Shown in pieces: positions 13,485 to 31,891 of a stretch of DNA of 64,000 bases. Position 1 is the stretch's first letter. Every line of letters begins with the position of its first letter. This stretch comes from an uncultured Gammaproteobacteria bacterium (lineage in GTDB: Bacteria; Pseudomonadota; Gammaproteobacteria; DRLM01), in contig CAVSNY010000006.1 in NCBI GenBank assembly GCA_963729605.1, positions 416,001 through 480,000 of the forward strand, in the 5' to 3' direction. Both the position numbers and the translations under genes were made by a program. The notes under the pieces were generated by a model. That model was not told where the DNA came from. It did no database searches and saw nothing but the letters and a program-made list of their open reading frames with translations.

Positions 13485-13587
13485 CTTTCCAGGGTAATCC
13501 CACCCATCTGCACCGCCAGGCCTTTCCCACGACACTGGCGGCCTTTGGGCAGATCGCGAAAACGCCGCCCAGTTCGGCCCATACCGG

Positions 13588-14712: not shown

Positions 14713-14746
14713 AAGTCTATTCCTTGATAGGGGGGCTATCTGTACG

Positions 14747-15187: not shown

Positions 15188-15274
15188 GATTCAGGGCGCC
15201 TTGCGCCGGATTTAACGCATTCGAAGCTTGCGATACACGTCAATATGCGGAGAATACGTGGCGATGGGCGGACC

Positions 15275-15375
15275 GTCTGTGCGCTACCGTACCAAGCTCA
15301 GGTTTCTACTGGTGACGGTACGCTTGGGATGATGCAAGGGAACATATCATGCGGTATGTGCGCCGGCGTACAGAC
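15275..15375. promoter_or_regulatory. Two inverted copies of the motif GTCTGTRCG-N4-CGYAC (candidate operators)
   Basis: GTCTGTGCGCTACCGTAC (15275-15292) and GTGCGCCGGCGTACAGAC (15358-15375) in the divergent intergenic region. Confidence 0.5.
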
Positions 15376-15470
15376 AACACGCAAATGACTTTCACCGTGA
15401 TACACTGCCGCACATTCCTCCACGCCGTCATGCAATCTCGCCGCGGACCGCAACTTCGGGAAATTGATTG

Positions 15471-16223
15471 ATGCCCACACCCCATAGTCCGATGCAAAAT
15501 CATCTTCTCGCCGCGTTGCCCGCTGCCGAGTTCGGCCGTTTGTCGCCCCATCTGGAACTGGTGACGATGCCGCTCGGTAAAGCCCTTTACGAATCGGGCG
15601 GCCGTCTGGAACATGTTTATTTCCCTACCACCTCCATCGTGTCGCTGCTGTACGTATTGGAAAACGGCGCATCAGCGGAAATAGCGGTGGTCGGCTATGA
15701 AGGAATACTGGGTATCTCGTTATTTATGGGTGGCGAAACCACACCCAGCCGCGCGGTAGTGCAGAGCGCGGGACACGGTTATCGCCTGGAAGCGCATCTA
15801 CTGAAACAGGAATTCAACCGGGCCGGGCCGGTGCTGCGTTTGTTGCTGCGTTATACCCAGGCGCTGATCACCCAGATGACGCAGACCGCGGTATGTAATC
15901 GCCATCACTCGGTCGAGCAGCAACTGTGCCGCTGGTTATTGCTAAGCCTCGACCGCTTATCCACCGACTCGCTGACCATGACCCAGGAGTTGATCGCTAA
16001 CATGCTCGGGGTACGCCGCGAAGGAGTGACCGAGGCCGCCGGAAATCTCCAGCGCGCGGGATTGATCCGCTACAGCCGTGGCCATATCGAAGTGTTGAAC
16101 CGACCGGGTTTGGAAAAGACGGTATGCGAATGCTACGGTGTGGTTAAACTGGAATTTGATCGTCTGCTTTCAGATATCCCTCGCGGCGATCCTTCTATGT
16201 CCTTGGCCAACCCGGCGCCGTAG
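15471..16223 (+). CDS. Crp/Fnr-family transcriptional regulator
   Basis: QNHLLAALP, VYFPTTSIVS, VCNRHHSVEQQLCRWLL, HTH TQELIANMLGVRREGVT. Confidence 0.92.
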   Translation: MPTPHSPMQNHLLAALPAAEFGRLSPHLELVTMPLGKALYESGGRLEHVYFPTTSIVSLLYVLENGASAEIAVVGYEGILGISLFMGGETTPSRAVVQSAGHGYRLEAHLLKQEFNRAGPVLRLLLRYTQALITQMTQTAVCNRHHSVEQQLCRWLLLSLDRLSTDSLTMTQELIANMLGVRREGVTEAAGNLQRAGLIRYSRGHIEVLNRPGLEKTVCECYGVVKLEFDRLLSDIPRGDPSMSLANPAP

Positions 16224-16319
16224 CTTGATACTCCGCGGGTGTTTATTGCGGTTGAACAAATTGATCAAGTTGATCGTGTTGATTTCAAATTCCCGTCGGC
16301 GGCGCCGAGTTCGCGCAGA

Positions 16320-17024
16320 TCACTGCGCCGGCGCCACCGACAACTCCCGCCGGCCACTCTCGGCCGAATCCGCATCCGGACTATTGCGATCAACCCACTC
16401 TTGACCGCGCCGTGCCAGCCACTCCGCCTCTTCCTTGGGCAGCGGGCCGCGCTTGAGGGTATTCTCCCATTCCCACAACGCGGCGCGGGCGCGCCGCACG
16501 TAATCTTCCGACGCCGGATCCGAAGGTGCGAGATGGATGTAGGTACGCATGGCGCCCAAGGCGACGGGCAGGTCATTCATGCCTTCCGCCGCGACCGCCA
16601 GGCCCCAATAGGCATTGCCTTGATAAGGCCGCAGGTCGACGGCGGTTTGGAAAAAATCCCGCGCCGCGGCGTATTGCTCCAAGCCCAACAGCGCATAACC
16701 CATGTTGACGTATGCCTCCGGCATGCGCGGCGCGAGGGCGATGACCCGGTGCAGGGCGGTGATGGCGTATTCGTATTCGCGGGCATGCAGCATCATCACC
16801 GCTTGCTGGAAGCGTTGGGTGATTTGTTCTTCGCGAGCGGCGCTGGCGTGTCCGCGCGGATCTAGCACCGGGTCGATGCGCGGGGCGACCGTGTCTTCCA
16901 AGGTCGCCAATTCCGGGCTGCGGCTGAGTCCGCCCAGCAGGCCGATGATGGCCAGCAGCAACAGCACTGACAGGAAAGAGGCGACCTTGGGCTGGCCGGC
17001 AATCACGCTATCGAGCGAACTCAT
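16320..17024 (-). CDS. Membrane-anchored TPR protein
   Basis: N-terminal TM; TPR pattern PEAYVNMGYALL/AYWGLAVA; overlaps the ccsA stop. Confidence 0.8.
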   Translation of the reverse strand: MSSLDSVIAGQPKVASFLSVLLLLAIIGLLGGLSRSPELATLEDTVAPRIDPVLDPRGHASAAREEQITQRFQQAVMMLHAREYEYAITALHRVIALAPRMPEAYVNMGYALLGLEQYAAARDFFQTAVDLRPYQGNAYWGLAVAAEGMNDLPVALGAMRTYIHLAPSDPASEDYVRRARAALWEWENTLKRGPLPKEEAEWLARRGQEWVDRNSPDADSAESGRRELSVAPAQ

Positions 17025-17878
17025 ATAACGCCTTTATGCGCGGCGGTGCTGTAGAAGGGCGTACCGAAATAGGTGAGGAAGGCGATGATGAAGATCGCGA
17101 TGATGAATACCGCACCGGCCCGCATCGGCAGTCGATAGGTCAAGCGCGCATGGATGGCGCCGCCTAAGGCCAGCCAGGTGAGAAACGACGAAGTTTCAAG
17201 CGCGTCCCATGACCAGTAACGGCCCCAGGCGTCCTGCGCCCACACCGCGCCGGCGATCAGCATGCCGCTGTGAAAGATAAAGGCGAGCAGCATGAAACGC
17301 CACGCCAGGTAATCGACCATGGCGTCATTGGGCAATTGGCGGAACCAAGGTTCCAGACGCCGCACGCCGCGCAGCAACAAAGCGCCGGCTAGACCGGTGC
17401 CGACCAGGCAGAAGCCGAGGAAGAATTTACCGAGACCGACATGCGCCCACAGCCAATTGTTGTAATAGGTGGGCGGAAAGGCGGTGTCGGTGGGTTCGAG
17501 CATCAACACCCACACACCCAGGATCCACATCAAGGGCAAGGCCACTACCGCGCTGGCGCGGATCGCCGGATAACGCCAATAGGCGTAGCTGTAAATGACG
17601 CCGAGGCTGAACAACTGGCTTATCAACAATTCGAAGAGATTGACGAATGGCCCGTGACCGATGCGCATCCAGCGTTCCGCCAAGGCCATCGCCAGCAGCG
17701 CGACGCCGGCGAGAATGAAGATGAACGCCGGGGTTTCGTAGCTGCGATTCACCGCGGCGCCCGCCGCGCCGCCGCGCGTCAGCACCACGCCGCGAATCAC
17801 AATAAAAGTGGCCAAGGCATACGCGGCCATTCCCGCCCACAACCAGGGTAGCTCGGTCATCGTTTTCCACTCATTCAT
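17021..17878 (-). CDS. ccsA: Cytochrome c biogenesis protein CcsA/ResC (system II)
   Basis: WWD motif GAVWAQDAWGRYWSWDALE, conserved His residues, multiple TM helices. Confidence 0.88.
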   Translation of the reverse strand: MNEWKTMTELPWLWAGMAAYALATFIVIRGVVLTRGGAAGAAVNRSYETPAFIFILAGVALLAMALAERWMRIGHGPFVNLFELLISQLFSLGVIYSYAYWRYPAIRASAVVALPLMWILGVWVLMLEPTDTAFPPTYYNNWLWAHVGLGKFFLGFCLVGTGLAGALLLRGVRRLEPWFRQLPNDAMVDYLAWRFMLLAFIFHSGMLIAGAVWAQDAWGRYWSWDALETSSFLTWLALGGAIHARLTYRLPMRAGAVFIIAIFIIAFLTYFGTPFYSTAAHKGVI

Positions 17879-18903
17879 ATTGCACCCCCTTTGGAAGAAG
17901 CGGGATATCTTCCCGCCTTCATTGCCTCGGCGGCCGCCCCGGCCGGCATGCGCGCGCCGAATTTACGCCAGAAATGGACGGACATGCCTATCACGCCGAA
18001 TACCGATATCACGAACAGCCACTGCAAGGTGGGATCGTAAAATATTTTATAACCCATCCAGGTCGACAGGCGTTCATACCGCAACTGTCCGCCGGGTAAA
18101 TTCACGGTCTCGCCCGGCTGTAGTTCGACGCGATCGGCGCCGGTGTTGACCACGAGCGTGCCTTTGGCCTTTTGGCCGTCCAATACCCACGCCGCTTTTT
18201 CCGTTATGCCGGTTTCGAGGCGCAGCCAGAATTTGATCTCCGGCCCACCGGGCGGCTGCCAGGTATTGTCCTGTTTGAATTCGAACAAGGGATAGGCCGG
18301 CATGTGCACCACGCCGGTCTGCGGCTCACCCCGCTCGGGCATCCAGGTCAGCAGCGGCGCGAAACCTTTGTTGAACGAGGTGTAGAAACGATAGCCTTCC
18401 AACACCAGAGGCCGGTCGTCACCGACTATGCGGCGTTCCCAACCGCCTTGCCCGTCCGGCACGCGCACCTCGCTGTGGGTGAGACCGCGTACCATGCCCG
18501 GCGCGTAATCGACGGTATAAGGCCCTTGCACGAAGACCAGTTTATCCAAATTACCCGCATGCCAGGGACCGCGGGTATCGTCGAACAATTCGTCGGCGGA
18601 AAACGGGGTGTCCTGCACCATCTCCACATGGGCCTCCAAGTGGGTGAGACGGCCTATCGCGGCCAATATCACCACGCCCAGCAGCGCGATATGAAACGTG
18701 AGCAGGCCGCCGCGGCGATTGATCCGCGGGTTGGTGATGATGGCGGCCAATAGATTGACCGCCAAAAACGCCATGGGCACCACCAGCACCCACACCGAGG
18801 TCGTCACCGGGTTGCCATAACTCAACCCCGCGCCGATGGCCAGCAACACCATGCCCACCAAGGTGAGCCGCAGGGAGGCGAGAGGTCTCAGGACGGCATT
18901 CAT
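17875..18903 (-). CDS. resB: Cytochrome c biogenesis protein ResB/CcsB-like
   Basis: LASLRLT N-terminus, TM helices with His (TFHIAL), periplasmic domain, YDP before the C-terminal TM; adjacent to ccsA. Confidence 0.8.
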   Translation of the reverse strand: MNAVLRPLASLRLTLVGMVLLAIGAGLSYGNPVTTSVWVLVVPMAFLAVNLLAAIITNPRINRRGGLLTFHIALLGVVILAAIGRLTHLEAHVEMVQDTPFSADELFDDTRGPWHAGNLDKLVFVQGPYTVDYAPGMVRGLTHSEVRVPDGQGGWERRIVGDDRPLVLEGYRFYTSFNKGFAPLLTWMPERGEPQTGVVHMPAYPLFEFKQDNTWQPPGGPEIKFWLRLETGITEKAAWVLDGQKAKGTLVVNTGADRVELQPGETVNLPGGQLRYERLSTWMGYKIFYDPTLQWLFVISVFGVIGMSVHFWRKFGARMPAGAAAEAMKAGRYPASSKGGAI

Positions 18904-21587
18904 GGAAGATTGTTGCAGGTTTCTTCACCGTTGCCGTTCATCCACGTAATACCTCGCTTGCCATTGCCCGGCGCGCCGGCTGAACCGCAACTGACCGGCG
19001 TCCATTCACCGCTGCGTTTGAAGTTGACCACCTTCAGCACCGAGCCGTTGTAATACGGCCCGCGGTAATAACGCTGCGGGCTGGGCGTGCGCACCTGAGT
19101 GCCCGCCGGCAAACCGGCTTCCAGTCCCACGTCGTTCAAGTTGACCAGGAAGTTTTTATTCTTCCAGCCGTGGGGCACGGCGATATGGCAGAAATTGCAG
19201 CGGAAATTGCGCACCACGTCTTCCTTGGCGTGACCGGTATGGAGATTGACGTTGGGCACGCCCACGCAAGACGCATTACCGGTGCTGCGCCGGAAACCGC
19301 TCTGCAAGGTTTGATTGCCGGCCAAAGGACCGGCGGGAAATGCTTTGCCGTAGTAATCGTAATTATGGCAGCGGAAACACAAGGCGTCGGGGGTGGCCGC
19401 GCCGGTATTGTCGTTCCACGGACCCTTCAGAATAAAATCATTGTTCGAACCGTGCGGTCCCCAGGAATTGCCTTGCGCACCGCCGCGCGGCACGGCGCCG
19501 TCATTGACGTCGGTATCCGAACCATGGCAATCGGTGCAATACATGGTCTGGGTACCTACGCCCGCGTTGAAAGGCGTTACCCAGACATCGGGACTATTGA
19601 TGCTGCGTACCGCGATCGTGCGCCCGGTGTCCTTGAGCGCGGGGTGCCAGGACCGATGATTGTTGTCCACCAGATTGACGCAGTTGCCCTGACTGTCACG
19701 ATAACCCGGCCAATTTTCCGAAGTCGCGTAATTGGCGTCGGTATAGGTGTCCTGGCATTCGCCTATGGCACCGGTGAAGAACGCGCCGGTCGGTGTAGTG
19801 GGAGTGCCCTCGCCTTTGTGATCGTCCGGCGATTGATATTCCATGGCCTGATTGGTGTATTGGAACATCGCGTTGGTCCCCGGCGGCGTACCGCCCCGGA
19901 AGGATCCCAGGTTGGGCGGTGAATCATACGCGTTGTTGGAGTGGCACTTCATGCACACCTGGTATTCGCGAGTGACGTAAGGCGCATTGACGTCGGTGCT
20001 GCCGCCCACGCCGGGATCACCGCGTTTGATCTCGAAGATCGTTGGCTCGCTGCCGAACTCGGTCGACGGCCAACCGCCCGGTTCCACGCCGGAAATACCG
20101 CGCAATACGCCGGAAGCCAAATTGGTGTGGATACCGCCGGTGGCGGCGAGCTGACTGGCGGTATGATTGTGGGTGCCTTCCTCCGGGTCAGGTATGTTGG
20201 GATCATCGTTGAATAACCGATTGCGGATCACCCGATGGGGATTGTGGCAGTCGGTACATTCCGCATGGCGGTTGTTGGGATCGCCTTTGCCCATGTGGAG
20301 AGTGGATTCCACGAAATCTTTACCGCCTTGCTGGCTCCTGAGCGGGCCGGTGCCAATGTCGTGCATCTCGCGCCCGGCCGGTTGATCGGCGCTGGCGATG
20401 GGCATGTGCCGGGCCATGGTGGTGAAGTCGGTTTTAATGTCGGGCACGCCGAAGCCGGGGCGGGTGCTTTGGGTGCCGCCGGTAGGACCGCCGCGCAGCA
20501 CGTCGCCGTCCGCCGAATGACAGGCGTAACAGGTTTCTTCGATGGCCGGTTGTCCCCCATGACGGAATTTGGCGCCGCTCGCGGTGATCGCCGGCGGGCC
20601 GTCGGCGCCTTCACGCAGAATGCGCCGCGAGCCTTGCACGGTGTGGGGATCATGGCAATTCAAACAGGCCGCCTGCCACACTTGGATGCCGCGGGGAAAT
20701 TCGCGGAGATCGGCCGCGGCATCTTGGTACTCATAGGTGGCGACGGCGGAGCTGGCGTGAGCCGAACCGACCCAGCCCGCCTTGTCGTGGCAGCCCAGGC
20801 AAATGATGTCGTTCTCGGCGTTGAACTGGCGATCCACCGGCTCTGCTCTCTGAAAGCGGTTCGCCCGCAGAAACTTGATATTTTCCCCCGAGGTATCGCG
20901 GATATGGGGATCGTGACAACTGACGCATTCCAAGCGATTTTCTTCCAAGGGCAGCAACGGCGCGGGCTGGCCTTGCACCCGGTCGCCCACATGGGCAACC
21001 ATAGCGGGATCATACAGCTCACCGTCACGCTCGGCTTGCGCGCTGTCGTAGGTAAAGGAGATGGGATGGTCGTTACGCAAATCCACGCCCAATCTGCGGG
21101 TGAAGCCGGTGGTGGATCCCATGCCTTCGGGAATGGTATCGCCCGGTCCGATGCCCGGGCCGGTGAAATCGATATTGGGATCTTCGACGCGATTGAGCAC
21201 ATTGACCGCGCCCAGGGCGAGGGTGCCGTCATGGCAGGATAAACACAATTTAGACTTGGCGCGCGGCTGATCCAGATCGATCGCGTCGAGCGAGCCGGAG
21301 GAATACGGCGTATAGGTGGTACCGGAGAGTTTGCGGTTCCACAACGGCGCCATGGGCGCCTTGGTCGCGCCGTGCGGCGTGTGACAGAAGGCGCATATCT
21401 GCGACTCGCTGCTGGCGGCGGCATTGCGTTGCGCGCCGTCGGGCAGGATGGGGATCACCGTCGCGGAAAAATTGTGCCTGGTGTTGCGGATATCGGAAAT
21501 ACGTTCGGCCTGCGCCGGCAGGGCGGATAAAATCAAACACGCAGCGGTCAGCGCGAGGATGCACCCGTTTCGCAGCGTCCGTATCAT
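18900..21587 (-). CDS. Secreted undecaheme cytochrome c (UetJ-like) with an OmcE-like N-terminal module
   Basis: Signal peptide AQA; 11 CxxCH counted: CAFCH, CLSCH, CVSCH, CLGCH, CLNCH, CYACH, CTDCH, CMKCH, CTDCH, CFRCH, CNFCH. Confidence 0.9.
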   Translation of the reverse strand: MIRTLRNGCILALTAACLILSALPAQAERISDIRNTRHNFSATVIPILPDGAQRNAAASSESQICAFCHTPHGATKAPMAPLWNRKLSGTTYTPYSSGSLDAIDLDQPRAKSKLCLSCHDGTLALGAVNVLNRVEDPNIDFTGPGIGPGDTIPEGMGSTTGFTRRLGVDLRNDHPISFTYDSAQAERDGELYDPAMVAHVGDRVQGQPAPLLPLEENRLECVSCHDPHIRDTSGENIKFLRANRFQRAEPVDRQFNAENDIICLGCHDKAGWVGSAHASSAVATYEYQDAAADLREFPRGIQVWQAACLNCHDPHTVQGSRRILREGADGPPAITASGAKFRHGGQPAIEETCYACHSADGDVLRGGPTGGTQSTRPGFGVPDIKTDFTTMARHMPIASADQPAGREMHDIGTGPLRSQQGGKDFVESTLHMGKGDPNNRHAECTDCHNPHRVIRNRLFNDDPNIPDPEEGTHNHTASQLAATGGIHTNLASGVLRGISGVEPGGWPSTEFGSEPTIFEIKRGDPGVGGSTDVNAPYVTREYQVCMKCHSNNAYDSPPNLGSFRGGTPPGTNAMFQYTNQAMEYQSPDDHKGEGTPTTPTGAFFTGAIGECQDTYTDANYATSENWPGYRDSQGNCVNLVDNNHRSWHPALKDTGRTIAVRSINSPDVWVTPFNAGVGTQTMYCTDCHGSDTDVNDGAVPRGGAQGNSWGPHGSNNDFILKGPWNDNTGAATPDALCFRCHNYDYYGKAFPAGPLAGNQTLQSGFRRSTGNASCVGVPNVNLHTGHAKEDVVRNFRCNFCHIAVPHGWKNKNFLVNLNDVGLEAGLPAGTQVRTPSPQRYYRGPYYNGSVLKVVNFKRSGEWTPVSCGSAGAPGNGKRGITWMNGNGEETCNNLP

Positions 21588-22651
21588 GCGCCCTCTCTCA
21601 GGAACTGAAGTATGACCACCCGGCCATTAAAACTGTCGGCGATGTAGACCCGGTCGCGGTGATCGGTCCACACTCCCGCCGGCAGATAAAATTGCCCGAG
21701 CCCCCCGCCCGTACCGCCGATCGGCAACAATAACTCACCTTCGGGGTTGAATACTAACAAATAATCAAAATACGATTCTACCACATAGACATTGCCGTCT
21801 TTATCCACGCCGACGCCCTTGGGGCGCGGCATGTCGCCCACGAATATCCCGCGGCGGCCGAACACTTGCAAAGGCTCGCCATCGGCGGACACCACCTGCA
21901 CCCGGGCGTTGAGGGTATCCGTCACATAGAGCCGATTATCGGCGAAGCTCAAATATGTGGGGGAGTTATATTCACCGGCCGCCTCGCCGCGGTGACCGAA
22001 GGTTTTCACCAATTCGCCGCCGTCGCTGAATACTTTGATGGCGTGGCCGTGGGTGTCGGCCACATAAATCCGGCCGTTCTCCGCATCCCGCGCCACGCCC
22101 GTGGGCCGCACCAACTGGTCTTTACCAAGAATGCCGCGCGGAACACCGTCTTTATTCAAACGGACCACGTAACCCAGTTCCGCGTCGGCCACCAGGATTT
22201 CGCCGTCGGCGCCCAACGCGATCCCGATCGGGGCAACGAACCGGACATTGTCGCCGGCCATCTCCCACACCCGCAAACTACCGGCCTGCTCATCGAACAC
22301 ATAGACCGCTTGGCGGCTGACGTCGGTGACATACACCCGGCCCGCCGGGTCGGTCACTCCGCCCTGCGGCCGCTGCAAGACCACCGGCACATGTTTGGGC
22401 GAGGTCAAGCCGACCAGCCACTTCAAAAAGCGCGTGCCGCTGGACCCGAAACCTTGCTCGGGGACGTGGATATTTTGTTCGCCGACGAGCTCGCCCACAT
22501 ACTGATACCGCGGCGTCTCGGGCGGCGCGGGCCACACCGCCGTGAAAGGCGGATCGGGCTGATAACGCAGCGTGCTGTGGGTCGGCGCGCATCCCGCCAA
22601 TATCGCGGACGCGACCAACAACCCCGCCGCGAACTTGGCACGTCTCACCAC
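21584..22651 (-). CDS. NHL-repeat beta-propeller lipoprotein (UetI-like)
   Basis: Lipobox LAGC; repeats of PxGV...IYVAD, YVTDTLNARVQ, YIADSFNGRV. Confidence 0.88.
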   Translation of the reverse strand: MVRRAKFAAGLLVASAILAGCAPTHSTLRYQPDPPFTAVWPAPPETPRYQYVGELVGEQNIHVPEQGFGSSGTRFLKWLVGLTSPKHVPVVLQRPQGGVTDPAGRVYVTDVSRQAVYVFDEQAGSLRVWEMAGDNVRFVAPIGIALGADGEILVADAELGYVVRLNKDGVPRGILGKDQLVRPTGVARDAENGRIYVADTHGHAIKVFSDGGELVKTFGHRGEAAGEYNSPTYLSFADNRLYVTDTLNARVQVVSADGEPLQVFGRRGIFVGDMPRPKGVGVDKDGNVYVVESYFDYLLVFNPEGELLLPIGGTGGGLGQFYLPAGVWTDHRDRVYIADSFNGRVVILQFLREGA

Positions 22652-22667
22652 ACGACACCCCCCTTAT

Positions 22668-23723
22668 TTATTGTTGCGTTTTGAATCCGCCTGCCGAGAT
22701 CTTGAACACTTGGATACGGCCGTTGAGACTGTCGGCCACGTATAAAGACCCCCCATCCAGCCACACGTCGCTCACGCCGTTGAAGCGGCCGGGCCCCACC
22801 CCGGCGCCGCCAAGGGTCGCGACCAACTTACCTTGCTCGAATATCCGTACGGTGTTATTAAAAAAGTCGGAGACGTAAGTTTGATTATCGGCGTCGACCG
22901 CCACGGCATTGGGAAACACCACGGTATCGGGATCGAAGGCGTATTTGAACGCGCCTTCCTCCGAGAGGACTTGGGCGCGATGGGCGAAACGCGCGGTGAC
23001 ATATACACCGTCGGGACCGCGAGCCATGGAGGTGATATTCAAGAATTCACCCTCGCCTTCACCGCGGCCACCCAGGGCGCGCCACAAACCGCCCGCGCCA
23101 TTGAAGATCAACACGTGATCGAGCACGCCGTCGGCGACGTAGACATCGCCGGTGGTCTCGTCCACCGACACCGCCACCGGCCGCCGCAGATTCATGGAAT
23201 CCTGGAAGGTGGCCTCCAGACGGCCATTGCGATTGAACTTGAGCACCTTGCCGCCGACGCTATCGGCGAGATAAAACGTGCGGTCGCCGGTGACGAAGAT
23301 ATCCGCCACATCGCCGACCACCAGCCCGCGCAAACTGACCAGCACTTCCTGGGTTCCGGAAATACGATCATAAAGGATCACCTGCTGCTGATCGGCATCG
23401 ACCACGTACACCCAGTGATCTTTGGCCGCCACCGCCACCGGACGGCGGAAACGCGCATCCTGCAAGAGCACCAGGCCTTCCGTGTCGCCGGTCATCACCG
23501 GCCGCAGCTCGCCGTTGCCGAAAAAGGCGTTGCCGGTCCGGCCGCCACTGATGCTTTCTTCAAAATAAATTTGGGTCGAACCGGTCTCGGCGACCACCAC
23601 GCCTTCGGCGCCCGAGGACATGGGGGTGCCGCCGAACATGGAACATCCGTTCAGTAGCCAGGTGCTGCCGATCAGCAGCGCGGTCAGCGCAGCCCGGCGG
23701 AATCGCGCGGTACGGAGTGGCAT
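22668..23723 (-). CDS. NHL-repeat beta-propeller lipoprotein (UetH-like)
   Basis: Start reassigned to ATG 23723 (MPLRTARF...LLNGC lipobox); RPVAV, VYVAD, YVADSLNGRIQ repeats. Confidence 0.85.
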   Translation of the reverse strand: MPLRTARFRRAALTALLIGSTWLLNGCSMFGGTPMSSGAEGVVVAETGSTQIYFEESISGGRTGNAFFGNGELRPVMTGDTEGLVLLQDARFRRPVAVAAKDHWVYVVDADQQQVILYDRISGTQEVLVSLRGLVVGDVADIFVTGDRTFYLADSVGGKVLKFNRNGRLEATFQDSMNLRRPVAVSVDETTGDVYVADGVLDHVLIFNGAGGLWRALGGRGEGEGEFLNITSMARGPDGVYVTARFAHRAQVLSEEGAFKYAFDPDTVVFPNAVAVDADNQTYVSDFFNNTVRIFEQGKLVATLGGAGVGPGRFNGVSDVWLDGGSLYVADSLNGRIQVFKISAGGFKTQQ

Positions 23724-24286
23724 CGTCCACAATTCATGGTGGGAGGGAAGGCGACCTTGCCATGGCAAACACCGCAGTATTTGCCTTGGATGATGTCCGA
23801 CATGGTAACCGGATTTGCCCCTTTCTGGGGAAGAAAAATCGCGGGATGGCAATTGGCGCAGGTCAACCATTCCGTGTGGGCCAAATGGGGAAAGCGCACG
23901 AAGGGCATGGAACCGGTATTCTTGAAAATGATGTCGAAGTCGGCGACATACATATCCTTGTCGCCCAGCTTGCTCTGCCGCGCGTCGATCATGCCCTTTT
24001 GCAGCACTTGCACCCAATCGATGATGCCGGCGGCGTCGCGCGGGAAATCCTTCATGGATTCCACCGGCTCTTGGAAAATGGTGACGGCGCTGTTGGTGGG
24101 ATCGTGGATACCGTCTTCGATGACGGGCACCACCTCACCTTCGGTTTGGAAGTGCAGGCCCTTGGTCCACACCGGGCCATCTTCCGCGTGCGCCACGACG
24201 GCCCAACCGAAAAACAGGGCGATGGCCACAGCGAAATATCCGCGGAGATTATTCTTAAACGCGTATCGCTCGACGCCTTTATTCAT
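23684..24286 (-). CDS. c7-like triheme cytochrome (UetG-like)
   Basis: Signal peptide AHA; FPHLAH, CANCH, CGVCH, CGRCH. Confidence 0.88.
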   Translation of the reverse strand: MNKGVERYAFKNNLRGYFAVAIALFFGWAVVAHAEDGPVWTKGLHFQTEGEVVPVIEDGIHDPTNSAVTIFQEPVESMKDFPRDAAGIIDWVQVLQKGMIDARQSKLGDKDMYVADFDIIFKNTGSMPFVRFPHLAHTEWLTCANCHPAIFLPQKGANPVTMSDIIQGKYCGVCHGKVAFPPTMNCGRCHSVPRDSAGLR

Positions 24287-24408
24287 GCTGTCCCCATTTG
24301 GCATGCCACGCCCCTGCGGGCGTGGGCTCGGGTAATATAACGTGTTTTCGAGACAAGTCACACTCAAAAACGCGCGCTTGTCCGCGCCACCCTCGGCCTA
24401 CGGGACGA

Positions 24409-26028
24409 CTATTGCACACCCGCCAGCCGCAAAGCCCTTTGTATCCTTTCGGTCGCCGCCTGCATCGCCATCACGGCCATTTTGTGATCGCCCTTGGCCG
24501 CCAATCCCAAGGCCTCGTCATGAACCTCGGTGGCGCGACCGGTCAGTTCGTGCATCATGGTCACCGTTTGCGGCGCCGGACGGCGTTGCTCGATGGCCAC
24601 GGGCACCAGTTCCACGTAACTGCGGTAACGGGACAGCTCGAACTCATATTCATCTTTAGGCGAGGCGAAGTTCTTGTCATAGACCACGGTCTGCGAGTGC
24701 AACATCGCGCTCAAGGCCGCGGTGATCAGCTCATTGGCCGATTCCAGCCGCTTGGCCGCGCCTTCGTGATCGCCTTTGCCCGCCAGGCTTTCCGCCTCGC
24801 TCAGCAGCTTGTCGTATTTGGCCTTGTCCAATTCCTCGCCCGCTTTACCGGGCTTCATGCCCTGCGCCACGTTTTTCTGGTAAGAGGCCTTAAAACCGCC
24901 GACCTGTTCCAGCAAGGCGGCGTAACGGGCTTTGTGGTCCACCGCCGGTTGCTCGGGAACTAAACGGGTGGCGGCATTCATCATCCGCAAGGCCTCGTCC
25001 ACCGAGCCCATGGCCTGGTTATTATCACCGGCGGCGAGCGCGGTACGCACGGCGATCAACTGCTCCTTCGCCCCGGCGACCAAGGCTTGCGCCTCGGCGT
25101 TATTACTGGCGGCCACCCGCTTGGCGGAGGCGGACGAGCCGATCAGCATATCCGCGAAACTCAGCTTCTGCTTCACTTGCTCCGCCGTATAGTTGCGGAC
25201 TATCGGGGTCTCTGCCGCGGGCAGCGCGGGCGGCGCACCCAAGCTCACCTTTTCCCCAGCGTTGACCACGTGAATCCTGCCACCCATATAAGCGTGGTTA
25301 CGGCATTCGTAATACACCTCGTCCGGTGTCGTGGCCGACGGTGTAAAGGTCGCGTCGCCCTTGAAAATAAACTGGCCGGTGATACCGTCGGTCAAGGTGC
25401 CCGCACCGCGGCCCACCGGGCTGGTCGTGAAATAAAAATCGTGCATCACCCCGGTGTCCAAACTAAACGTGTAGGTTACGCCGCGGGTCAGCACCAGCTC
25501 TTTGCCCTGCACGCCGTCCGTCACGAACGCCATGTCCGAACCACGGCCGAAATAAGGGTGACTGGCGTCCTTGGGTCCGGCGACCAACTGAAAAGTTCGC
25601 GGTGTACGATCAGCCACTACGGTGACCGGACCGGGGCGTTGCGCGGCCGGCACGCTTGCCGCGGGTTTGGACGGGACCGGGCTGGGCGCCACTACGGCGG
25701 GGGGCGCGACTACCGGCGCAGGCGCCGCAGCGGGCGGAACGGCTTCGGCGGTTGGAACAACGTCGGCGGGTGGCGCGGATAAATCGGTTTTATTTTCCGG
25801 CGCGGTCTGCGGTGATTCCTCTACCGGCGCGGACGGGGCCTCCGTGCTGCCGGCCTCCGGTTGCGTGAGGGCGTCGTCCGTGGTGGTGGCGACTACACTC
25901 GGCGATTGCGCCGACATGACCGGCGCCGGCGCGGCGGTCTGCGCGACCTCTTTCTTTTCACCGGTGGACACACACGCCGTCATCGCCACCGCGATCGCCA
26001 GACATAACAATTTACGCTTTGAGTTCAT
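24409..26028 (-). CDS. Lipoprotein with Pro/Ala linker, cupredoxin-like motif and helical C-terminus (UetF position)
   Basis: Lipobox MTAC; PA-rich linker; MHDFYF...YYECRNHAYMGG. Confidence 0.8.
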   Translation of the reverse strand: MNSKRKLLCLAIAVAMTACVSTGEKKEVAQTAAPAPVMSAQSPSVVATTTDDALTQPEAGSTEAPSAPVEESPQTAPENKTDLSAPPADVVPTAEAVPPAAAPAPVVAPPAVVAPSPVPSKPAASVPAAQRPGPVTVVADRTPRTFQLVAGPKDASHPYFGRGSDMAFVTDGVQGKELVLTRGVTYTFSLDTGVMHDFYFTTSPVGRGAGTLTDGITGQFIFKGDATFTPSATTPDEVYYECRNHAYMGGRIHVVNAGEKVSLGAPPALPAAETPIVRNYTAEQVKQKLSFADMLIGSSASAKRVAASNNAEAQALVAGAKEQLIAVRTALAAGDNNQAMGSVDEALRMMNAATRLVPEQPAVDHKARYAALLEQVGGFKASYQKNVAQGMKPGKAGEELDKAKYDKLLSEAESLAGKGDHEGAAKRLESANELITAALSAMLHSQTVVYDKNFASPKDEYEFELSRYRSYVELVPVAIEQRRPAPQTVTMMHELTGRATEVHDEALGLAAKGDHKMAVMAMQAATERIQRALRLAGVQ

Positions 26029-26224
26029 ACGTCTCCTCGCCGAATCTCATGGCCATACCCAGCCGCAAAGCGTCCGCCGACCCGGTTCATCTCGAACTCA
26101 GTCCAGATGAAATTTACCTCCTGGGCAACGGTGTTGCTCACAGTTTGTCCGTAAAACACGGTGTCAAAAACGGGCTAAATGCGGCGGCGCCACAATCACT
26201 TGTGGCGCCGCTTGCGTTATCGGA

Positions 26225-26926
26225 CTAACGCCAGGGATTCTTAAGCGTGGCGTCGCTCAACGGCGGCGACCAATCCGCGGGCTTGGGCTTGGAGTGGCAC
26301 TTGGAGCAGGTCTTGGTGGTGATCGGGAAAGAAACCTTGCCATGACACACACCGCACTTCTGTCCCAACAGAATGGCCGACATATTGATTTGGTTGGCCC
26401 CTTTCTGCGGGATGAAGATGGCGGGATGACAGTTGGCGCAGGACAGCCATTCGGTGTGTTGACGATGGGGGAACACCACGTCCGGCACCGAGGCCTTCAC
26501 CTCGCGGACGATATCCATGTCCATCACGAAGGGCTCTTCGCTGGAATCGATACGGTCCCAGCGGGGTGAGAGCTTCTTCTCGTCGATGGCCTTCACCCAG
26601 TCGACATGATTGCCGAACTCGGTGGTGGGCAGACCTTTATAGGCCTCCTTAGGCGGCTGGAGAATATGGGTGCCTTCGTTCTCCGGATCGTGATAGCCGC
26701 TCTCCGGCGGCGCCGCGTTGGGATCCTTTTCCTTCTTCAAATTGCGGTTGAAGGTGTTGGAGGACGAGACATCGGCGAGCATCAAGCGTTCGCCGGGCGC
26801 CGCCTGCTGCATGGCACCACTAAACAGACCCGCGTCCGCGGCGAAGGCGGAAGCAGAAACCAGCAGGGTCAACACCGCTGATCCTACAAAGATTTTCAAT
26901 TGTTGTGTCATGACCACGCTCCTCAC
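26225..26926 (-). CDS. c7-like triheme cytochrome (UetE-like)
   Basis: Signal peptide AFA; FPHRQH, CANCH, CGVCH, CSKCH. Confidence 0.88.
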   Translation of the reverse strand: MRSVVMTQQLKIFVGSAVLTLLVSASAFAADAGLFSGAMQQAAPGERLMLADVSSSNTFNRNLKKEKDPNAAPPESGYHDPENEGTHILQPPKEAYKGLPTTEFGNHVDWVKAIDEKKLSPRWDRIDSSEEPFVMDMDIVREVKASVPDVVFPHRQHTEWLSCANCHPAIFIPQKGANQINMSAILLGQKCGVCHGKVSFPITTKTCSKCHSKPKPADWSPPLSDATLKNPWR

Positions 26927-26935
26927 ATTGACCGG

Positions 26936-27382
26936 TTACTGTTTGGCAGGCTGTTGTGGAGCGTTGAGCGCCTTATAAGGTGGCGACACTAGACGCTGCA
27001 CGGTGCTCCCGTGAATGTGGGTCGGCGTGCCAGGTATGCCGGAATGGCACATATTGCAGTTCTCCACGGACCAAGCCACCTCCCCGTTATGGCAAGCGCC
27101 GCAGAATTTACCGTCGATGATCTTGGCCATGGTGATCTTGTTGCCGCCGGCTTTGAACTCGAATCCCAGGTCGGCATGACAGACCTTGCAAGTGAAACGA
27201 ATACGATGAAACCAGTGCGGGAATACCACGGGACGCATACCGGCCGCGTCGGCGTAATTATTAATGATCACATCGGCATATTCCGCTTTGGCGGGGGTCA
27301 TGGCCAGCAGGGCCAGTCCCGCTAACACCCCCAAAATGGAAAATCTCCATTTGATGCTACGGTCGGCTTTGTAGGACGTCAT
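26936..27382 (-). CDS. c7-like triheme cytochrome (UetD-like)
   Basis: Signal peptide AKA; FPHWFH, CKVCH, CGACH, CNMCH. Confidence 0.88.
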   Translation of the reverse strand: MTSYKADRSIKWRFSILGVLAGLALLAMTPAKAEYADVIINNYADAAGMRPVVFPHWFHRIRFTCKVCHADLGFEFKAGGNKITMAKIIDGKFCGACHNGEVAWSVENCNMCHSGIPGTPTHIHGSTVQRLVSPPYKALNAPQQPAKQ

Positions 27383-27460
27383 GCACGGTCTCCTCGGTTA
27401 ATTTGACGTATTATAATTAATCACCAGCAAACGTGGTAATGGTTTCAAAGAGCAACCCCA

Positions 27461-29212
27461 TTAAAATCGGCGCATCACGCGAAAGTATAAGAGCTGCGAA
27501 GCCTCGTGGCCGTTATCCATCCATCTGAAACTCAGGCTGGCGTCCACCAATCCGATGGTGTAATTCAGGCGGTTTTCCCATTCGTTGCGATCCAAACCCT
27601 CACCCGTGGAGGCTTGCGAGAGCCGCAGGTCGGAGTTGAATTGCAGGCGCGGAATACTGAACAGGGTTTGCTGAAGATAACTGATCTGACCGGTGGTGGT
27701 GGTCACCGAGCCGTCATTGGCTCCACCGGAGAAATCGCGCACCACCGTCTGCAACGTCAAATGGCCCGACAACGTGCTGCGCGCACCCAAGGCCTGATAA
27801 CGCGAGGCCTGCAAATTCACCAGCTGCTGCTCATCGCTCAGATCACCGAAATTACGCGAATCCGACAAGGTGAGTTGCACCAGGGTGGTCGCACCCTGAG
27901 TGGACGACTGATTCCAGCCCAAGCTTGCGCTGTGATCCAGGCGATGCTGAGTGGCCTCATCACCGGTGGTCAACACCTCGTTGAAGGCCTGAGTCAGACC
28001 CACGCGCAAAGACGATTGCGGGTCCAGCATCCACATCCTCTGCGCATCGTGACCCAATGAGGCCTGTAACGACTGGACGTTTTCATCCACGTCGCTCTGG
28101 TTTTCCAGCGCGCCGCTGACATACCACTGATACGTAAAACTCCGCCATTCGATCAGATCGGATTGCAGCAGGGCGCCAAGTCGCTGGCGATGCAGGGTTT
28201 GATTGGCGCCATTGATATCCGACTGACTGAAATTGGCGCTGCCGTCAAAGCGCAGCCGTTTCGAATATTGATAGAAGGCGCCCGCCGTCGCGCCGAAGCT
28301 GGCTTGATCGCTGGATTGCGCGGAATTTTCGCCGGCCATGGTATAGGCGCGCGCGCCCGCGCTGACCGTCCAGCGTTTATCGACCGGCCGCCAGAACGTG
28401 AAGCTGGATACCTGGTTGATTTCCGTGGTGACGGTATCCACCAAGCCGGTCGCCCCTTCGAAGGTGGTATCGAGATGGTAATGGCTGGCCTTGGTGTCGA
28501 GCCGGATATCCTCGTTGGGGAAATAATAATGATCGACGTCGAGAATGAAATTTTCTTGGTGGCGATCGGTGCGCGACTGATCGGTGGTTTCTATATTGCC
28601 GCGGAACAACAAGCGCTGGCGGACCGGCCGCCAGTCCAATTCCACGCCCATAATTTCGTTTTCATAGGTACCGCTCAGGTCCGAATCCCAGGTGCGCGCA
28701 CCATATCGCAACTGGGCGCGATGGCCTTCTTCGGTGATGTACGATTGCCGCAAATCCAAATTGGTGGTTTGGTATTCCGAACCGAACACCCGCACCAGCG
28801 GGTTGTAGACCACGGTATTGTCCACCCGGCTGTCGGTGGCTTGATACAACAAGCGGAAAGGGGTGCGGCTGTCCGGCAACACGTTGAGCATCAGGTCGCC
28901 GGAATACACGTCCGAGGTGGTGCTGGTGCTGGCGTTGCCGTCGTCCAGGTCCGAGCTGTCCTTGGCCAGGGTGGCGCCGCCCTCGACGGTGGCGAACCAC
29001 GGCTGCCAGATATAAGAGCGTAAGCGCAGATTTCCCAACAACTGGTTGCTGGTGGCGTCGGTGGTATCGGTGCTGAGCGAACGGAAACTGTAACCCACGC
29101 TGCCTGACACATCCACGGGCAAGGCGCGCGCCGCGGGGCACACGGACACCAGCGCCACCAGCGCCAAGCCCTGGGTGACGTGAGATGCGAACGCAGCACA
29201 GACCCGTCTCAT
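27461..29212 (-). CDS. Large outer-membrane beta-barrel of the cytochrome cluster (UetC-like)
   Basis: Signal peptide ARA; alternating amphipathic strands; C-terminal YFRVMRRF beta-signal. Start set at ATG 29212. Confidence 0.8.
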   Translation of the reverse strand: MRRVCAAFASHVTQGLALVALVSVCPAARALPVDVSGSVGYSFRSLSTDTTDATSNQLLGNLRLRSYIWQPWFATVEGGATLAKDSSDLDDGNASTSTTSDVYSGDLMLNVLPDSRTPFRLLYQATDSRVDNTVVYNPLVRVFGSEYQTTNLDLRQSYITEEGHRAQLRYGARTWDSDLSGTYENEIMGVELDWRPVRQRLLFRGNIETTDQSRTDRHQENFILDVDHYYFPNEDIRLDTKASHYHLDTTFEGATGLVDTVTTEINQVSSFTFWRPVDKRWTVSAGARAYTMAGENSAQSSDQASFGATAGAFYQYSKRLRFDGSANFSQSDINGANQTLHRQRLGALLQSDLIEWRSFTYQWYVSGALENQSDVDENVQSLQASLGHDAQRMWMLDPQSSLRVGLTQAFNEVLTTGDEATQHRLDHSASLGWNQSSTQGATTLVQLTLSDSRNFGDLSDEQQLVNLQASRYQALGARSTLSGHLTLQTVVRDFSGGANDGSVTTTTGQISYLQQTLFSIPRLQFNSDLRLSQASTGEGLDRNEWENRLNYTIGLVDASLSFRWMDNGHEASQLLYFRVMRRF

Positions 29213-29513
29213 TGTTATTATCGCGCGCCCCTCAGTGACATATCCCCTCGAAGCCTCCACCCGGCGCTCCCCCGGATGGCGAGCTACAACGCGCGCGCGG
29301 ACATTGCCCCCGTCCGCCGTCGTGCGCATTGCCGCGCGCCGTAAATTTTTTCACCTTAAGCGACCTCGCACCTCAATGCAAGATCACTCGCCCTCAACGA
29401 CCGGCGCCACTCATTTTTAATCGCCTAGCGGCGCCCACTCTCCCTTGCCCGCCCTGATGTCGCCCGACAATCCCTCCTTGATCGGGACTGAAAATTAATA
29501 CATCGGCCGCAAT

Positions 29514-30329
29514 TTATTTATTATGACAAGTTAAACACACGGCGCTGCCCGCTGGGTCAACGCGAAGGAAAGTGGGGGTCTCATCCACGTGGGGATCATG
29601 GCAGGAGCCGCACTCCACATAAGGCTGCGCCTCGCCCGCATACGCCCCCCGCGTCGCCACCCGGGTATACAGCTTCATATCGGTACGTTCGAAGGATTGA
29701 GTCCCCTCGGGGGTATTGACCCACCACACCCGGCTGGTGCCCATGATCTCTGAATTGGCGGGATGAAAATCCCGGTCCGCGCCCGGTCCGCCCGCGTTCG
29801 ACAGTGAATAACCACCACCCGCGTATTGAATACCGATAGGATGGTCGTTGGTGAGATCCTTGCCCAAATTAGTGATCACCGCCGGCCGGCCGATGCGGCC
29901 TTGCGCGGGCCGCGCCTGTCCGCTCCAGGCCCCGTTGCGAAAACCGGGCACCTGCACGCCGGAGCCCGGCTCGTTGATCAAGGTATCCATGGCTTGCGTG
30001 CCGTCGTGGCAGGAAAGGCAGGCGACCGAGACCGAACCTATCGGCTCGATGGACCCATCGAGGGTGGTGGTGCCGAGTTGATCGTAGGTTTCGTAGCCGG
30101 TGGGGTCGATGTTGCGGTTCCATAATGGAACGGCCGCGCTGGCGTTGGCCCCATGAGGCGTATGACAAAATACGCAGATCTCCCGCGTGCCGTCGATATT
30201 GCTCACGGCATTCAGCCCCCCCGCACTCAAGTTGTGCTTGGTATTAAATACGCCGCCGAGGCTCACGCCCCCCGCCAACCACAGCAGCGTCGCTCCGGCA
30301 AAAACCAAAGCGCGATAACCGGTTTTCAT
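29514..30329 (-). CDS. Secreted tetraheme cytochrome c, OmcE-like (UetA-like)
   Basis: TKHNLS, ICVFCHTPH, PLWNR, CLSCHDG, LGKDLTNDHPIG, ECGSCHDPH, FLR, SAVCLTCHNK. Confidence 0.9.
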   Translation of the reverse strand: MKTGYRALVFAGATLLWLAGGVSLGGVFNTKHNLSAGGLNAVSNIDGTREICVFCHTPHGANASAAVPLWNRNIDPTGYETYDQLGTTTLDGSIEPIGSVSVACLSCHDGTQAMDTLINEPGSGVQVPGFRNGAWSGQARPAQGRIGRPAVITNLGKDLTNDHPIGIQYAGGGYSLSNAGGPGADRDFHPANSEIMGTSRVWWVNTPEGTQSFERTDMKLYTRVATRGAYAGEAQPYVECGSCHDPHVDETPTFLRVDPAGSAVCLTCHNK

Positions 30330-30614
30330 CACTCGCCCCTTTAAAGGGTTTTCCGCCGTCAGATTTTGTCAACTTAGGCGCTAAGTTACAAGTGTTTAAA
30401 CTGACTATGGCCATCGGCGCGCAAAACCTTGTGATTCGCCCGCTTCCAAAGTTAGTCAAAACGGCGCGGGAGCCGAAAATGACCGCGCATCAAAACCAGC
30501 GGCCGCGGCCCTTCCCGTCTCAACGCCTCATCAAACGCGCTTGATTATTTTAGCGACGTCGCCTGACAGTGGAGCAACCGTTGACCGTTCACATCCAACC
30601 GGACATATCGACAT

Positions 30615-30663: not shown

Positions 30664-31710
30664 TTATTTCGAAGAAAATTTATGGTTGATACCCAATGAC
30701 AGGGCCGACGCATCCTGGCCGGTCACCGAGTTCAACCTGGTCAAGTCATAATTGCCATTGTCGCCATTGCTCATCAGGTTGTACATCGCGTACAACTCGG
30801 TGTTCTTGGTGAAGTTGCGAAACACGCCCAAGGCGAAATGGGTGGCGCCGGAATCGGCCTCCGAGTCTTTTTCATCGGCCATGGCGACCGAACCCTTCAG
30901 CGTATAACCCTCCAGCTTATGGGCCACGCTCACCAGAAAGGCATTGCGCTGATTGTCGGCGCCGCCCTCATCGGCGCTTTCAAAAATCGCCCCCACCGTG
31001 GTGGGACCGAAGGCATAGCTGCCGCCCACCTTCATGGCCACCGCATCGTCGCCGTTGGTGTGATAGGCATTGAGCGACTCGTAAGCGGCGGTGAGGTACC
31101 AGGGACCGCTGTTGTAACTGCCGTTCACGCTGTAGACATCGCGATCGCTCTACCGCGTGGTCATGGGCAGATCGTCATCGCCCCGATGATCGGCAAACAC
31201 ATAGCCCAGCATCGCGCTGAAGCCGTTCATGCTCGGCGTCGTGTAGATGATAATGTTGGAGGCGCGGCGATCGAACAATTTATTGCCGTCGTCCACGCTG
31301 CCGATGATGGCGTTGAAATCGCCCTTGGTCTCGGCAAAGATATCCAGCTTGGAGGTGGCCCTTTTATAGGGGGTATCGTGTTTGCCCGCCAGCACCTGAC
31401 CAAATCCGCCCGTCAGACCCACAAAGGTGTTGCGCTGGCTGCTGAACGCCGCGCCGTCGTCAAAATCCACCTGCTGCTCGATCTGCCACAAGGCGGCGAG
31501 TCCGTTACCCAAATCCTCGTCGCCCTTGAAACCCAGACGGGAATCGTAGCTGGTCAGACTAATGGCGCTGTCTTCATTGCCCGCCGTGGGGTCATTATTG
31601 TTATTGAAATCCAACGAGACATAAGCCGCCCCATACACCTCCACGCCGGCCTGCGCCAACGGCGCCATCATGGCAGCCACGACACCCGCGGCGATCATAT
31701 GTTTATTCAT
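30664..31710 (-). pseudogene. Gram-negative trimeric porin with an in-frame TAG at 31150-31152
   Basis: The two track ORFs share one frame (PMTTR*SDRDVYSVNG). SRLGFKGDEDLGNGL and GINHKFSSK are shared with the two neighbouring paralogs. Confidence 0.8.
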
Positions 31711-31891
31711 TATTCCCCCTCGACTATATTGAACCCCGTCTAAATCAACCCCGTCGATCAAAAACCGCCTTGCGCCGCGCGCTGGTCTGATGTTGATATC
31801 TTCCCGTGAAAAATCAGCACGGTAATCGCTCAACAGTCTAACAGTAGCGCATAGCCGCCTTTGTCACAACGCTCTCCTGCATGCGTTTCTC

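Follow-up and report, generated by a model that had tools for sequence, protein, structure and literature searches.

A twelve-gene Uet operon

We analysed a stretch of 64,000 nucleotides (the window) from an uncultured gammaproteobacterium (GTDB lineage Bacteria; Pseudomonadota; Gammaproteobacteria; DRLM01; GenBank assembly GCA_963729605.1, contig CAVSNY010000006.1, positions 416,001 to 480,000 of the forward strand). Here we describe an operon of multiheme cytochromes in this window, its place in the Uet (undecaheme electron transfer) cluster type and its relationship to the OmcE-type cytochrome nanowire systems. In the ORF list and translations of the window, twelve open reading frames (ORFs), g1 to g12, lie on the minus strand, run in one direction and span positions 16320-30332. 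Their proteins carry 4, 0, 3, 3, 0, 3, 0, 0, 11, 0, 0 and 0 CxxCH heme motifs, respectively, 24 in total, and variant heme motifs (Cx3-4CH or CxxCK) are absent from all twelve. An initial annotation, made from the sequence alone, had already listed twelve co-oriented genes with 24 motifs (4+3+3+3+11), which the motif count and the ORF list bear out; of the span that it gave, the left end stands, but the right end, 30329, falls 3 bases short of the GTG start at 30332. The overlapping gene ends that it had noticed amount to 4 nt at g8/g9, g9/g10, g10/g11 and g11/g12, and to about 40 nt at g6/g7, while its barrel of ~580 amino acids agrees with g2, whose ORF of 622 amino acids probably starts at Met40 and would then encode 583. 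The likely true starts also shorten g6 to 200 and g7 to 351 amino acids. As read from the translations, all five cytochromes have Sec signal peptides, and g5, g7 and g8 have lipoboxes. Matches to Pfam and NCBIfam support the triheme, NHL, ResB, CcsA and TPR assignments.

The Uet cluster was described for Ca. Tenderia electrophaga and the Tenderiales. The available text of the preprint gives the order as the tetraheme UetA, the peptidyl-prolyl isomerase (PPIase) UetB, the barrel UetC, the trihemes UetD and UetE, the cupredoxin UetF and the triheme UetG, followed by the NHL proteins UetH and UetI, the undecaheme UetJ, CcsA, CcsB, an NrfG-like TPR protein and BatD/B/A; Leptothrix cholodnii is also named there (10.1101/2022.05.06.490989). 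Some Gallionella and Leptothrix have likewise been reported to carry the cluster. As initially proposed, the order of g1-g12 corresponds to uetA, C, D, E, F, G, H, I, J, ccsAB and nrfG. On this order, we identify the operon as the Uet cluster of an uncultured autotrophic gammaproteobacterium, in a form without uetB and bat. Since the Uet cluster has already been described, the window operon by itself is an ordinary member of it and is not new.

Relatives of the operon are common. Scanning the species genomes with g9 gave 304 pattern matches and 287 confirmed relatives, of which 74 loci were kept, mostly from gammaproteobacterial metagenome-assembled genomes (MAGs). Across these loci g9 aligns over its full length with 49-93% identity: 91-93% in groundwater MAGs, 84% in a record labelled Biocath and 62-63% in Ca. 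Tenderia sp. MAGs. The undecaheme is present in 12/12 species genomes of the taxonomic order of the window, at 71-93% identity. A tblastn search with all twelve proteins recovered the same gene order in the related loci that extend far enough, and because this order recurs among relatives, sequence comparison indicates that the twelve-gene arrangement is not a product of chance.

The differences from the published cluster lie in uetB and batABD. Between g1 and g2 there is a gap of 301 bp without any ORF. Both the tetraheme and the barrel are present in 51/74 kept loci; in 42 of these 51 an ORF of 292-375 amino acids separates them, which was a SurA-like PPIase with SurA_N and rotamase domains in 3/3 cases tested, while in the other 9 the gap is only 215-401 bp, as in the window. 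No close uetB copy was found elsewhere in the genome, where the best matches are partial and 25-37% identical to other PPIases. Likewise, no bat genes follow g12, where the DNA encodes a Crp-like regulator, DUF4398 proteins and an OmpA-family protein instead; among 43 window ORFs scanned with Pfam, none had a von Willebrand domain. The initial annotation had called the operon a self-contained trans-envelope conduit. This description is too strong, because the operon has no inner-membrane quinone-linked component, uetB is absent and no bat genes follow.

The tetraheme cytochrome and the OmcE family

The first gene, g1 (29514..30332, minus strand), encodes a UetA-like tetraheme cytochrome of 272 amino acids with a signal peptide, four CxxCH motifs and four conserved distal histidines. 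Among the ten matches listed in a PDB sequence search only two were significant, 9yuq_N (E 7.8e-28) and 7tfs_A (E 4.9e-24), each aligning in two stretches that together cover residues 9-272, nearly the full length. 7TFS, whose chain the PDB table names only as 'Cytochrome c', is the OmcE filament of G. sulfurreducens, and 9YUQ has been published as the OmcE bundle of D. soudanensis (PMC13712944). This full-length match to solved filament subunits confirms, at the level of homology, the OmcE-type lead of the initial annotation.

The g1 family is large, with 4129 clusters (at 50% identity) at E <=0.001 and 216 at E <=1e-30. Across 54 of its sequences none of the four CxxCH motifs varies, nor do H33, H164 and H248, while H60 is almost invariant; OmcE homologs have been described with four CxxCH and four other histidines (PMC13712944, section 7). 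A family-specific insertion of ~40 residues (around 180-235) distinguishes UetA from the solved OmcE subunits of 218-232 amino acids.

The gene neighbourhoods resemble each other as well. According to the available text of PMC13712944, the smallest omcE clusters always contain OmcE, two multiheme cytochromes, two beta-propeller lipoproteins and a large beta-barrel, and Pseudomonadota are among the groups with OmcE homologs in this kind of neighbourhood (sections 7-8). The Uet operon shares with the OmcE cluster of Desulfuromonadia the tetraheme with its four CxxCH and four histidines, the two propeller lipoproteins, the large barrel and further multihemes. In contrast to that cluster, it occurs in an autotrophic gammaproteobacterium and also encodes a cupredoxin, three trihemes of the c7 type and a ResB/CcsA/TPR set of its own. 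We found no mention of Tenderia or of an undecaheme in the main text of PMC13712944, and the available text of the Uet preprint does not mention OmcE and merely speculates about conductive polymers of a Uet cytochrome (10.1101/2022.05.06.490989). No paper equating Uet with OmcE was found in the literature searched, article supplements lying outside that search.

The same genome has a second OmcE-like gene (G000:C7:781893-782690, minus strand), which encodes 265 amino acids with five CxxCH and is followed by its own NHL lipoprotein gene (L081 8675-10691); no barrel was seen in that place, and class-I c-type cytochromes and a GGDEF/EAL protein adjoin it. The pentaheme type has been described as what may be a new family of OmcE nanowires (PMC13712944, section 9).

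The undecaheme cytochrome

The UetJ-like undecaheme g9 (18900..21587, minus strand) combines 11 CxxCH motifs in two parts, an OmcE-like tetraheme module (about residues 28-272) and a seven-heme extension (about 273-895). In the PDB sequence search, residues 12-230 match 7tfs_A (E 1.7e-19). When the g1 family was compared with g9 by hhalign, residues 9-272 of the former aligned to 10-272 of the latter (probability 100%, E 3.3e-49), with all four heme motifs and the four distal histidines in register. The remainder of g9, ~620 residues with seven more hemes, found no solved relative by profile search. Thus, judged from these alignments, UetJ is an OmcE unit fused to a heptaheme cytochrome, an architecture that we have not found in print.

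All cysteines and histidines of the 11 motifs are kept in 57/57 sequences of a joint alignment (15 Uet, 42 other). This alignment has 24 conserved histidines for the 11 hemes of the UetJ family, 11 of them proximal; outside the motifs, H38, H72, H174, H228, H277, H315, H409, H441, H451, H648 and H712 are 100% conserved, and H783 and H806 are 91-95% conserved. H277 lies eight residues beyond the point where OmcE-like proteins end. The g1 family has eight conserved histidines for four hemes. Subunits of OmcE and OmcS are joined through a histidine of one that ligates a heme of the next (PMC12307469, available text), and it has been argued that a nanowire anchor needs one histidine more than twice its number of hemes (PMC13712944, available text). 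On this count, UetJ could donate its N-terminal histidine to a filament subunit while requiring none back, which would place it at one end of the chain.

The OmcE-like modules of the undecahemes, all 57, fall with 4 others in one clade (support 0.83; here and below, supports are FastTree local supports). Two of these 4 others come from loci in which the UetJ-type protein is divided between two genes: L101 of Ca. Deferrimicrobium (3738-5507) and L116 of a Zixibacteria MAG (4661-6403). There the module ends as OmcE does, in ...CHKY or ...CHNY. The seven- or eight-heme extension is encoded by a second gene that has a start of its own and, in L116, also a signal peptide of its own. On their gene structure, we regard these loci as a natural split form of UetJ, and the occurrence of its halves as separate genes supports their physical association.

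The outer-membrane barrel

The UetC-like outer-membrane beta-barrel g2 lies at 27461..29212 on the minus strand (ORF on to 29329) and, counted from Met40, ends in ...FRVMRRF. It matches no Pfam or NCBIfam family. Its AlphaFold2 (AF2) model has a mean predicted local distance difference test score (pLDDT) of 89.1 and 28 long strands, the number also predicted for the published UetC (10.1101/2022.05.06.490989, available text). Compared with solved chains, the model gave its top Foldseek TM-score with MtrB (0.46/0.42). In the VIA comparison, MtrB gave the longest good alignment (443 aligned residues, Z 14.6), but its Z-score is tied with those of porins, TonB-dependent transporters and ushers. 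A g2 profile searched against the PDB found no MtrB; its best match was OprC (E 0.074). The MtrCAB and MtoAB conduits are similar in pairing a large outer-membrane barrel with multiheme cytochromes, but the MtrB barrel has 26 strands and no sequence relation to g2, whose partner cytochromes in the window belong to the OmcE family. The DmsE- and MtrC-family matches of the operon cytochromes are all sub-threshold (DmsE scores of 27.6 and 41.0 bits, against a cut-off of 192).

The barrel recurs next to OmcE-like genes outside Uet. In the non-Uet loci described below, an ORF of 560-826 amino acids occupies the same place, in many cases with ...RRF or ...RYF as its C-terminus. From 23 of these ORFs a profile was made, after dropping the gap ORF of L114 and gap ORFs shorter than 550 amino acids and leaving out L138 for its different layout; it aligned with the g2 family over 513 columns (hhalign probability 98.5%, E 1.8e-15); reversed-sequence controls reached 6.7% and 54.9%, over only 82-92 columns. 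From this profile comparison we conclude that the barrel is homologous across Uet and OmcE-like loci.

The undecaheme and its propeller across phyla

With the stored representative P0249 we retrieved 78 OmcE-like loci, and the comparison with OmcE loci rests on these MAG loci rather than on those of G. sulfurreducens and D. soudanensis themselves. They come from Nitrospirota, Desulfobacterota (including a Desulfuromonadales MAG, L091, and a Desulfuromusa MAG, L117), Bacteroidota, Ignavibacteriota, Chlorobiota, Acidobacteriota and others. Hidden Markov models of the Uet locus detected a g8-like NHL protein in 77/78 of them, a g1-like protein in 65/78 and a g9-like protein in 51/78. The five loci with a g2 hit (5/78) were set aside as Uet-type, leaving 73 non-Uet loci; these five belong to Thiohalomonadaceae, Gallionella, Burkholderiales and, twice, the Rhodocyclales genus Sulfuritalea (L145, L149).

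Excluding hmmsearch hits with E >1e-30, the 73 non-Uet loci contain 43 g9-like ORFs, 42 of them full length (561-757 amino acids) and one a piece of 215 amino acids with four motifs. The CxxCH count is 11 in 28 of them and 10 in 14, some having Cx3CH instead. A g8-like gene lies no more than 400 bp ahead of 41 of the 43. The two Desulfuromonadales loci, L091 and L117, have homologs of g1, g8, g2 and g9 and a UetB-like PPIase, in the common order OmcE-like, NHL, barrel, NHL, UetJ-like, PPIase; L091 and L117 are also among the loci behind the barrel profile.

The two NHL beta-propeller lipoproteins of the window are g7 (UetH-like; 22668..23723, minus strand; 351 amino acids from Met99, lipobox LLNGC, matches to NHL and DUF5128) and g8 (UetI-like; 21584..22651, minus strand; 355 amino acids, lipobox ILAGC, NHL E 6e-26). 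In the NHL tree a split with support 0.76 places all 42 propellers that precede an undecaheme together with all 9 Uet g8 proteins in one group, whereas 30/32 propellers that precede a tetraheme fall with g7 in the other. Thus, as far as homology and gene order tell, OmcE-like genes of many phyla are repeatedly accompanied by the undecaheme, its propeller and the barrel, an association that we have not found in print.

A different layout was seen in L138 (Geothermobacter hydrogeniphilus HR-1), where an ORF of 2753 amino acids with 57 CxxCH and 6 Cx3CH (10789-19050) directly follows an OmcE-like tetraheme and a propeller-like protein of 1013 amino acids.

Periplasmic carriers and heme ligation

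The three trihemes all match PF14522 and exceed the 40-bit cut-off of TIGR04257 (3/3, 62.8-69.5 bits). They are g3 (UetD-like, periplasmic c7-type; 26936..27382, minus strand; 148 amino acids, three CxxCH, PF14522 E 4e-16, TIGR04257 68.6 bits), g4 (UetE-like, with an extra N-terminal domain; 26225..26926, minus strand; 233 amino acids, three CxxCH, 62.8 bits) and g6 (UetG-like; 23684..24286, minus strand, ORF on to 24367; 200 amino acids from Met28, 69.5 bits).

The fifth gene, g5 (24409..26028, minus strand), encodes 539 amino acids with a lipobox (...AMTAC), a Pro/Ala-rich linker, a cupredoxin domain and a helical C-terminal domain. H196, C242, H245 and M248 are invariant in 30 sequences, with the spacing His...Cys-x2-His-x2-Met, which is the ligand pattern of a type-1 copper site. 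The protein matches PF25489 weakly, and a sequence search against the PDB gave no match. It had been annotated as a lipoprotein, and the lipobox is present, but this label is incomplete, as g5 is the cupredoxin UetF with invariant copper ligands. With g5 as a blue-copper protein, the chain would comprise 24 hemes and one copper site.

Downstream of the undecaheme lie the genes predicted to attach heme: g10 (17875..18903, minus strand), a ResB-like System II cytochrome c biogenesis protein of 342 amino acids (PF05140 E 2e-9); g11 (17021..17878, minus strand), a CcsA/ResC-type heme-handling protein of 285 amino acids (PF01578 E 5.5e-25; TIGR03144 110.7 bits, under the cut-off of that model); and g12 (16320..17024, minus strand), a membrane-anchored NrfG-like TPR protein of 234 amino acids that matches TPR families and keeps its position in related loci. 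Counting g11, the genome has 5 CcsA-type genes, and it encodes CcmC and CcmF as well.

Host, habitat and direction of electron flow

The host genome comprises 3.48 Mb in 7 contigs and is 94.5% complete. Carbon-fixation genes, named in the initial annotation as a point to check, were looked for, and two RuBisCO large-subunit genes were found, one of them ~8 kb upstream of the window. There is one full CcoN with a FixO-like neighbour (a cbb3-type oxidase); SoxB and DsrA gave no match above the family cut-offs in the genome. Ten ORFs in the genome have at least three CxxCH, and five of these are in the operon. Electron uptake fits this gene content, because the host combines two RuBisCO genes and a cbb3-type oxidase with the lack of SoxB/DsrA hits and few other multihemes; our genome analysis would thus fit a lithoautotroph with the Uet operon as its main electron entry, the role that the available text of the Uet preprint proposes for Tenderiales (10.1101/2022.05.06.490989). 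Near the full CcoN and the FixO-like gene, two truncated CcoN-like ORFs of 176 and 186 amino acids were seen (G000:C7:654283-667578); this cluster recalls the 'truncated CcoN' region described for Tenderiales (10.1101/2022.05.06.490989).

Near-identical DNA occurs in runs from wetland, sludge, biofilter, groundwater, rock, soil and freshwater, where 20 rows from 12 studies contain some portion of the window. At 15468-16223 on the plus strand, a Crp/Fnr-type regulator gene converges on the end of the operon, and oxygen or redox control is a possibility.

The occ cluster of Ca. Dechloromonas occultata (occA-S, with the undecaheme OccP) is related by description: its 19 genes include an extracellular undecaheme of ~900 amino acids, NHL-repeat proteins, a PPIase and many c-type cytochromes. 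Compared by description only, it differs in coming from a heterotrophic or mixotrophic Mn(III)-reducing enrichment and from a host without RuBisCO (10.1101/695007, available text).

Surroundings of the operon

Just upstream of the operon, the two ends of a Porin_4-family porin gene (30664-31833, minus strand) are read in different frames, the N-terminal ORF at 31150-31833 and the C-terminal one at 30664-31128. Either the gene is a pseudogene with a frameshift or the sequence contains an error; a paralog at 31940-33007 is intact. A metal-efflux island at 52461-63699 encodes an outer-membrane factor, a membrane-fusion protein, an RND pump, a cation-efflux protein, a heavy-metal P-type ATPase with YHS/HMBD domains and a CusS-like sensor kinase. 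Signs of mobile DNA are scattered away from the operon: an IS4/IS5-family DDE transposase (5552-6325, minus strand), a TraF-like gene (45086-46393, minus strand) and a phage tail-collar domain (47757-48623, plus strand).

Discussion

Homologies, gene order, heme ligands and the barrel together suggest, with somewhat better than even odds in our judgement, that Uet is the proteobacterial form of a widespread OmcE-type extracellular cytochrome system. In such a system, the Sec-exported tetraheme UetA would, as the OmcE-like unit, form head-to-tail stacks outside the cell in which every subunit supplies a histidine to a heme of its neighbour, and the 28-strand barrel UetC would serve as outer-membrane pore or anchor. 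The NHL lipoproteins may act as cognate helpers, g7 for UetA and g8 for UetJ. UetJ, with its OmcE-like unit and its heptaheme rod, would join the OmcE-type heme chain to the barrel and the periplasm, where the three c7-type trihemes and the blue-copper protein UetF would carry electrons onwards, and the ResB/CcsA/TPR set of the operon would attach the 24 hemes. In this host electrons would probably flow inwards: drawn from Fe(II), minerals or cathodes, they would reach the cbb3 oxidase and, through reverse flow, CO2 fixation.

It is tempting to speculate further about UetJ. An 'anchor' or 'tip' cytochrome has been called for, and OmcE operons are described as encoding no tip candidate (PMC13712944, available text). 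We consider it possible, if clearly speculative, that the UetJ-type undecahemes are the missing 'base' or 'tip' of OmcE nanowires, an ancient fusion of an OmcE subunit with a heptaheme rod. The OmcE-like end of UetJ would then dock on the filament through the normal subunit interface, H277 would close the heme site that otherwise depends on the next subunit, and the rod might thread the 28-strand barrel, so that the wire would gain an anchor as well as an electrical connection to the c7 and cupredoxin carriers of the periplasm.

Several observations weigh against these proposals. Only 17/73 non-Uet loci, and 10/36 of those with at least 18 kb of sequence, combine an undecaheme homolog with a separate tetraheme; therefore, the undecaheme and its NHL partner can do without a filament subunit close by. 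For g9 the heme-free AF2 model is poor (mean pLDDT 49.8), and the nearest solved folds of g2 are generic large barrels, so that g2 may yet belong to a plain MtrAB-like conduit. Neither the promoter-like sites (3, against 6.9±2.8 expected) nor the terminator-like sites (18, against 16.0±3.4) are above chance. Metatranscriptome contigs of two studies do lend weak support to transcription, covering parts of g3-g10 with 90-99% identity, but contigs from RNA libraries can contain DNA; that they do not cover g1 counts neither way. Filament formation, surface location, the contacts between the proteins and the anchor role are, moreover, all points that we infer from sequence. Finally, inward flow has to be set against the expression of the occ cluster, seen in the metaproteome of the Mn(III)-reducing enrichment (10.1101/695007, available text).

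The operon could instead be a plain porin-cytochrome conduit that builds no filament, with UetJ or UetA inside the barrel as MtrA is inside MtrB, the other as a monomeric surface cytochrome and the NHL proteins only stabilising. This is the model proposed in the Uet preprint (10.1101/2022.05.06.490989, available text), and the large 28-strand barrel, with MtrB as its best structural match by Foldseek TM-score and 443 residues aligned in VIA, would suit it, as would the 24/41 loci in which an undecaheme homolog has no separate tetraheme nearby. We nevertheless see it as a minority possibility, given that UetA is homologous over its whole length to two proteins whose solved structures are filaments and keeps the eight conserved histidines of its family, that the barrel lacks a sequence relation to MtrB, and that its family is common to the OmcE-type loci of Desulfuromonadales. 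That the UetJ-type undecahemes themselves polymerise or stand free, UetA being an accessory such as a cap or a shuttle, strikes us as improbable. The undecaheme and its NHL protein are indeed the most constant pair (41/43), found also in loci where no separate tetraheme was found, and the OmcE-like module keeps the N-terminal histidine that is invariant in the OmcE family. Nevertheless, 24 histidines for 11 hemes are two more than a unit that both gives and receives needs, the extension takes over right behind the fourth heme motif, at the docking place of the next subunit, and the solved filaments consist of tetrahemes.

The same machinery might also be used outwards, delivering electrons from respiration to Mn(III) or Fe(III) outside the cell, to electrodes or to partner cells; since multiheme chains are reversible, this alternative concerns the physiology and not the mechanism. 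OmcE filaments serve metal-oxide reduction in Geobacter (PMC12307469, available text), and the occ cluster, with its undecaheme, NHL proteins and PPIase, was found in a metaproteome during Mn(III) reduction, so that the direction may be outward in some hosts. For the host studied here we consider this rather unlikely, in view of its two RuBisCO genes, its cbb3-type oxidase, the lack of SoxB/DsrA hits and its very few other multihemes, and of relatives that point to cathodes, the Ca. Tenderia from cathode-oxidising communities and the 84%-identical relative from the record labelled Biocath. Comparing these hosts, we propose that the direction of flow may be host-dependent or reversible.

There is as yet no settled account of how cytochrome nanowires are secreted, how they start and end, and how they are anchored and connected electrically to the cell. 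The presence of an OmcE-like module fused to a heptaheme rod, beside its own propeller, in many phyla makes the question of the anchor or tip genetically testable in tractable Desulfuromonadia. Moreover, Uet is a main candidate for the system by which cathode- and iron-oxidising autotrophs take up electrons, and if its relationship to OmcE is as we propose, it would gain a structural model to test, and systems for electron uptake and for electron export would be linked as one family.

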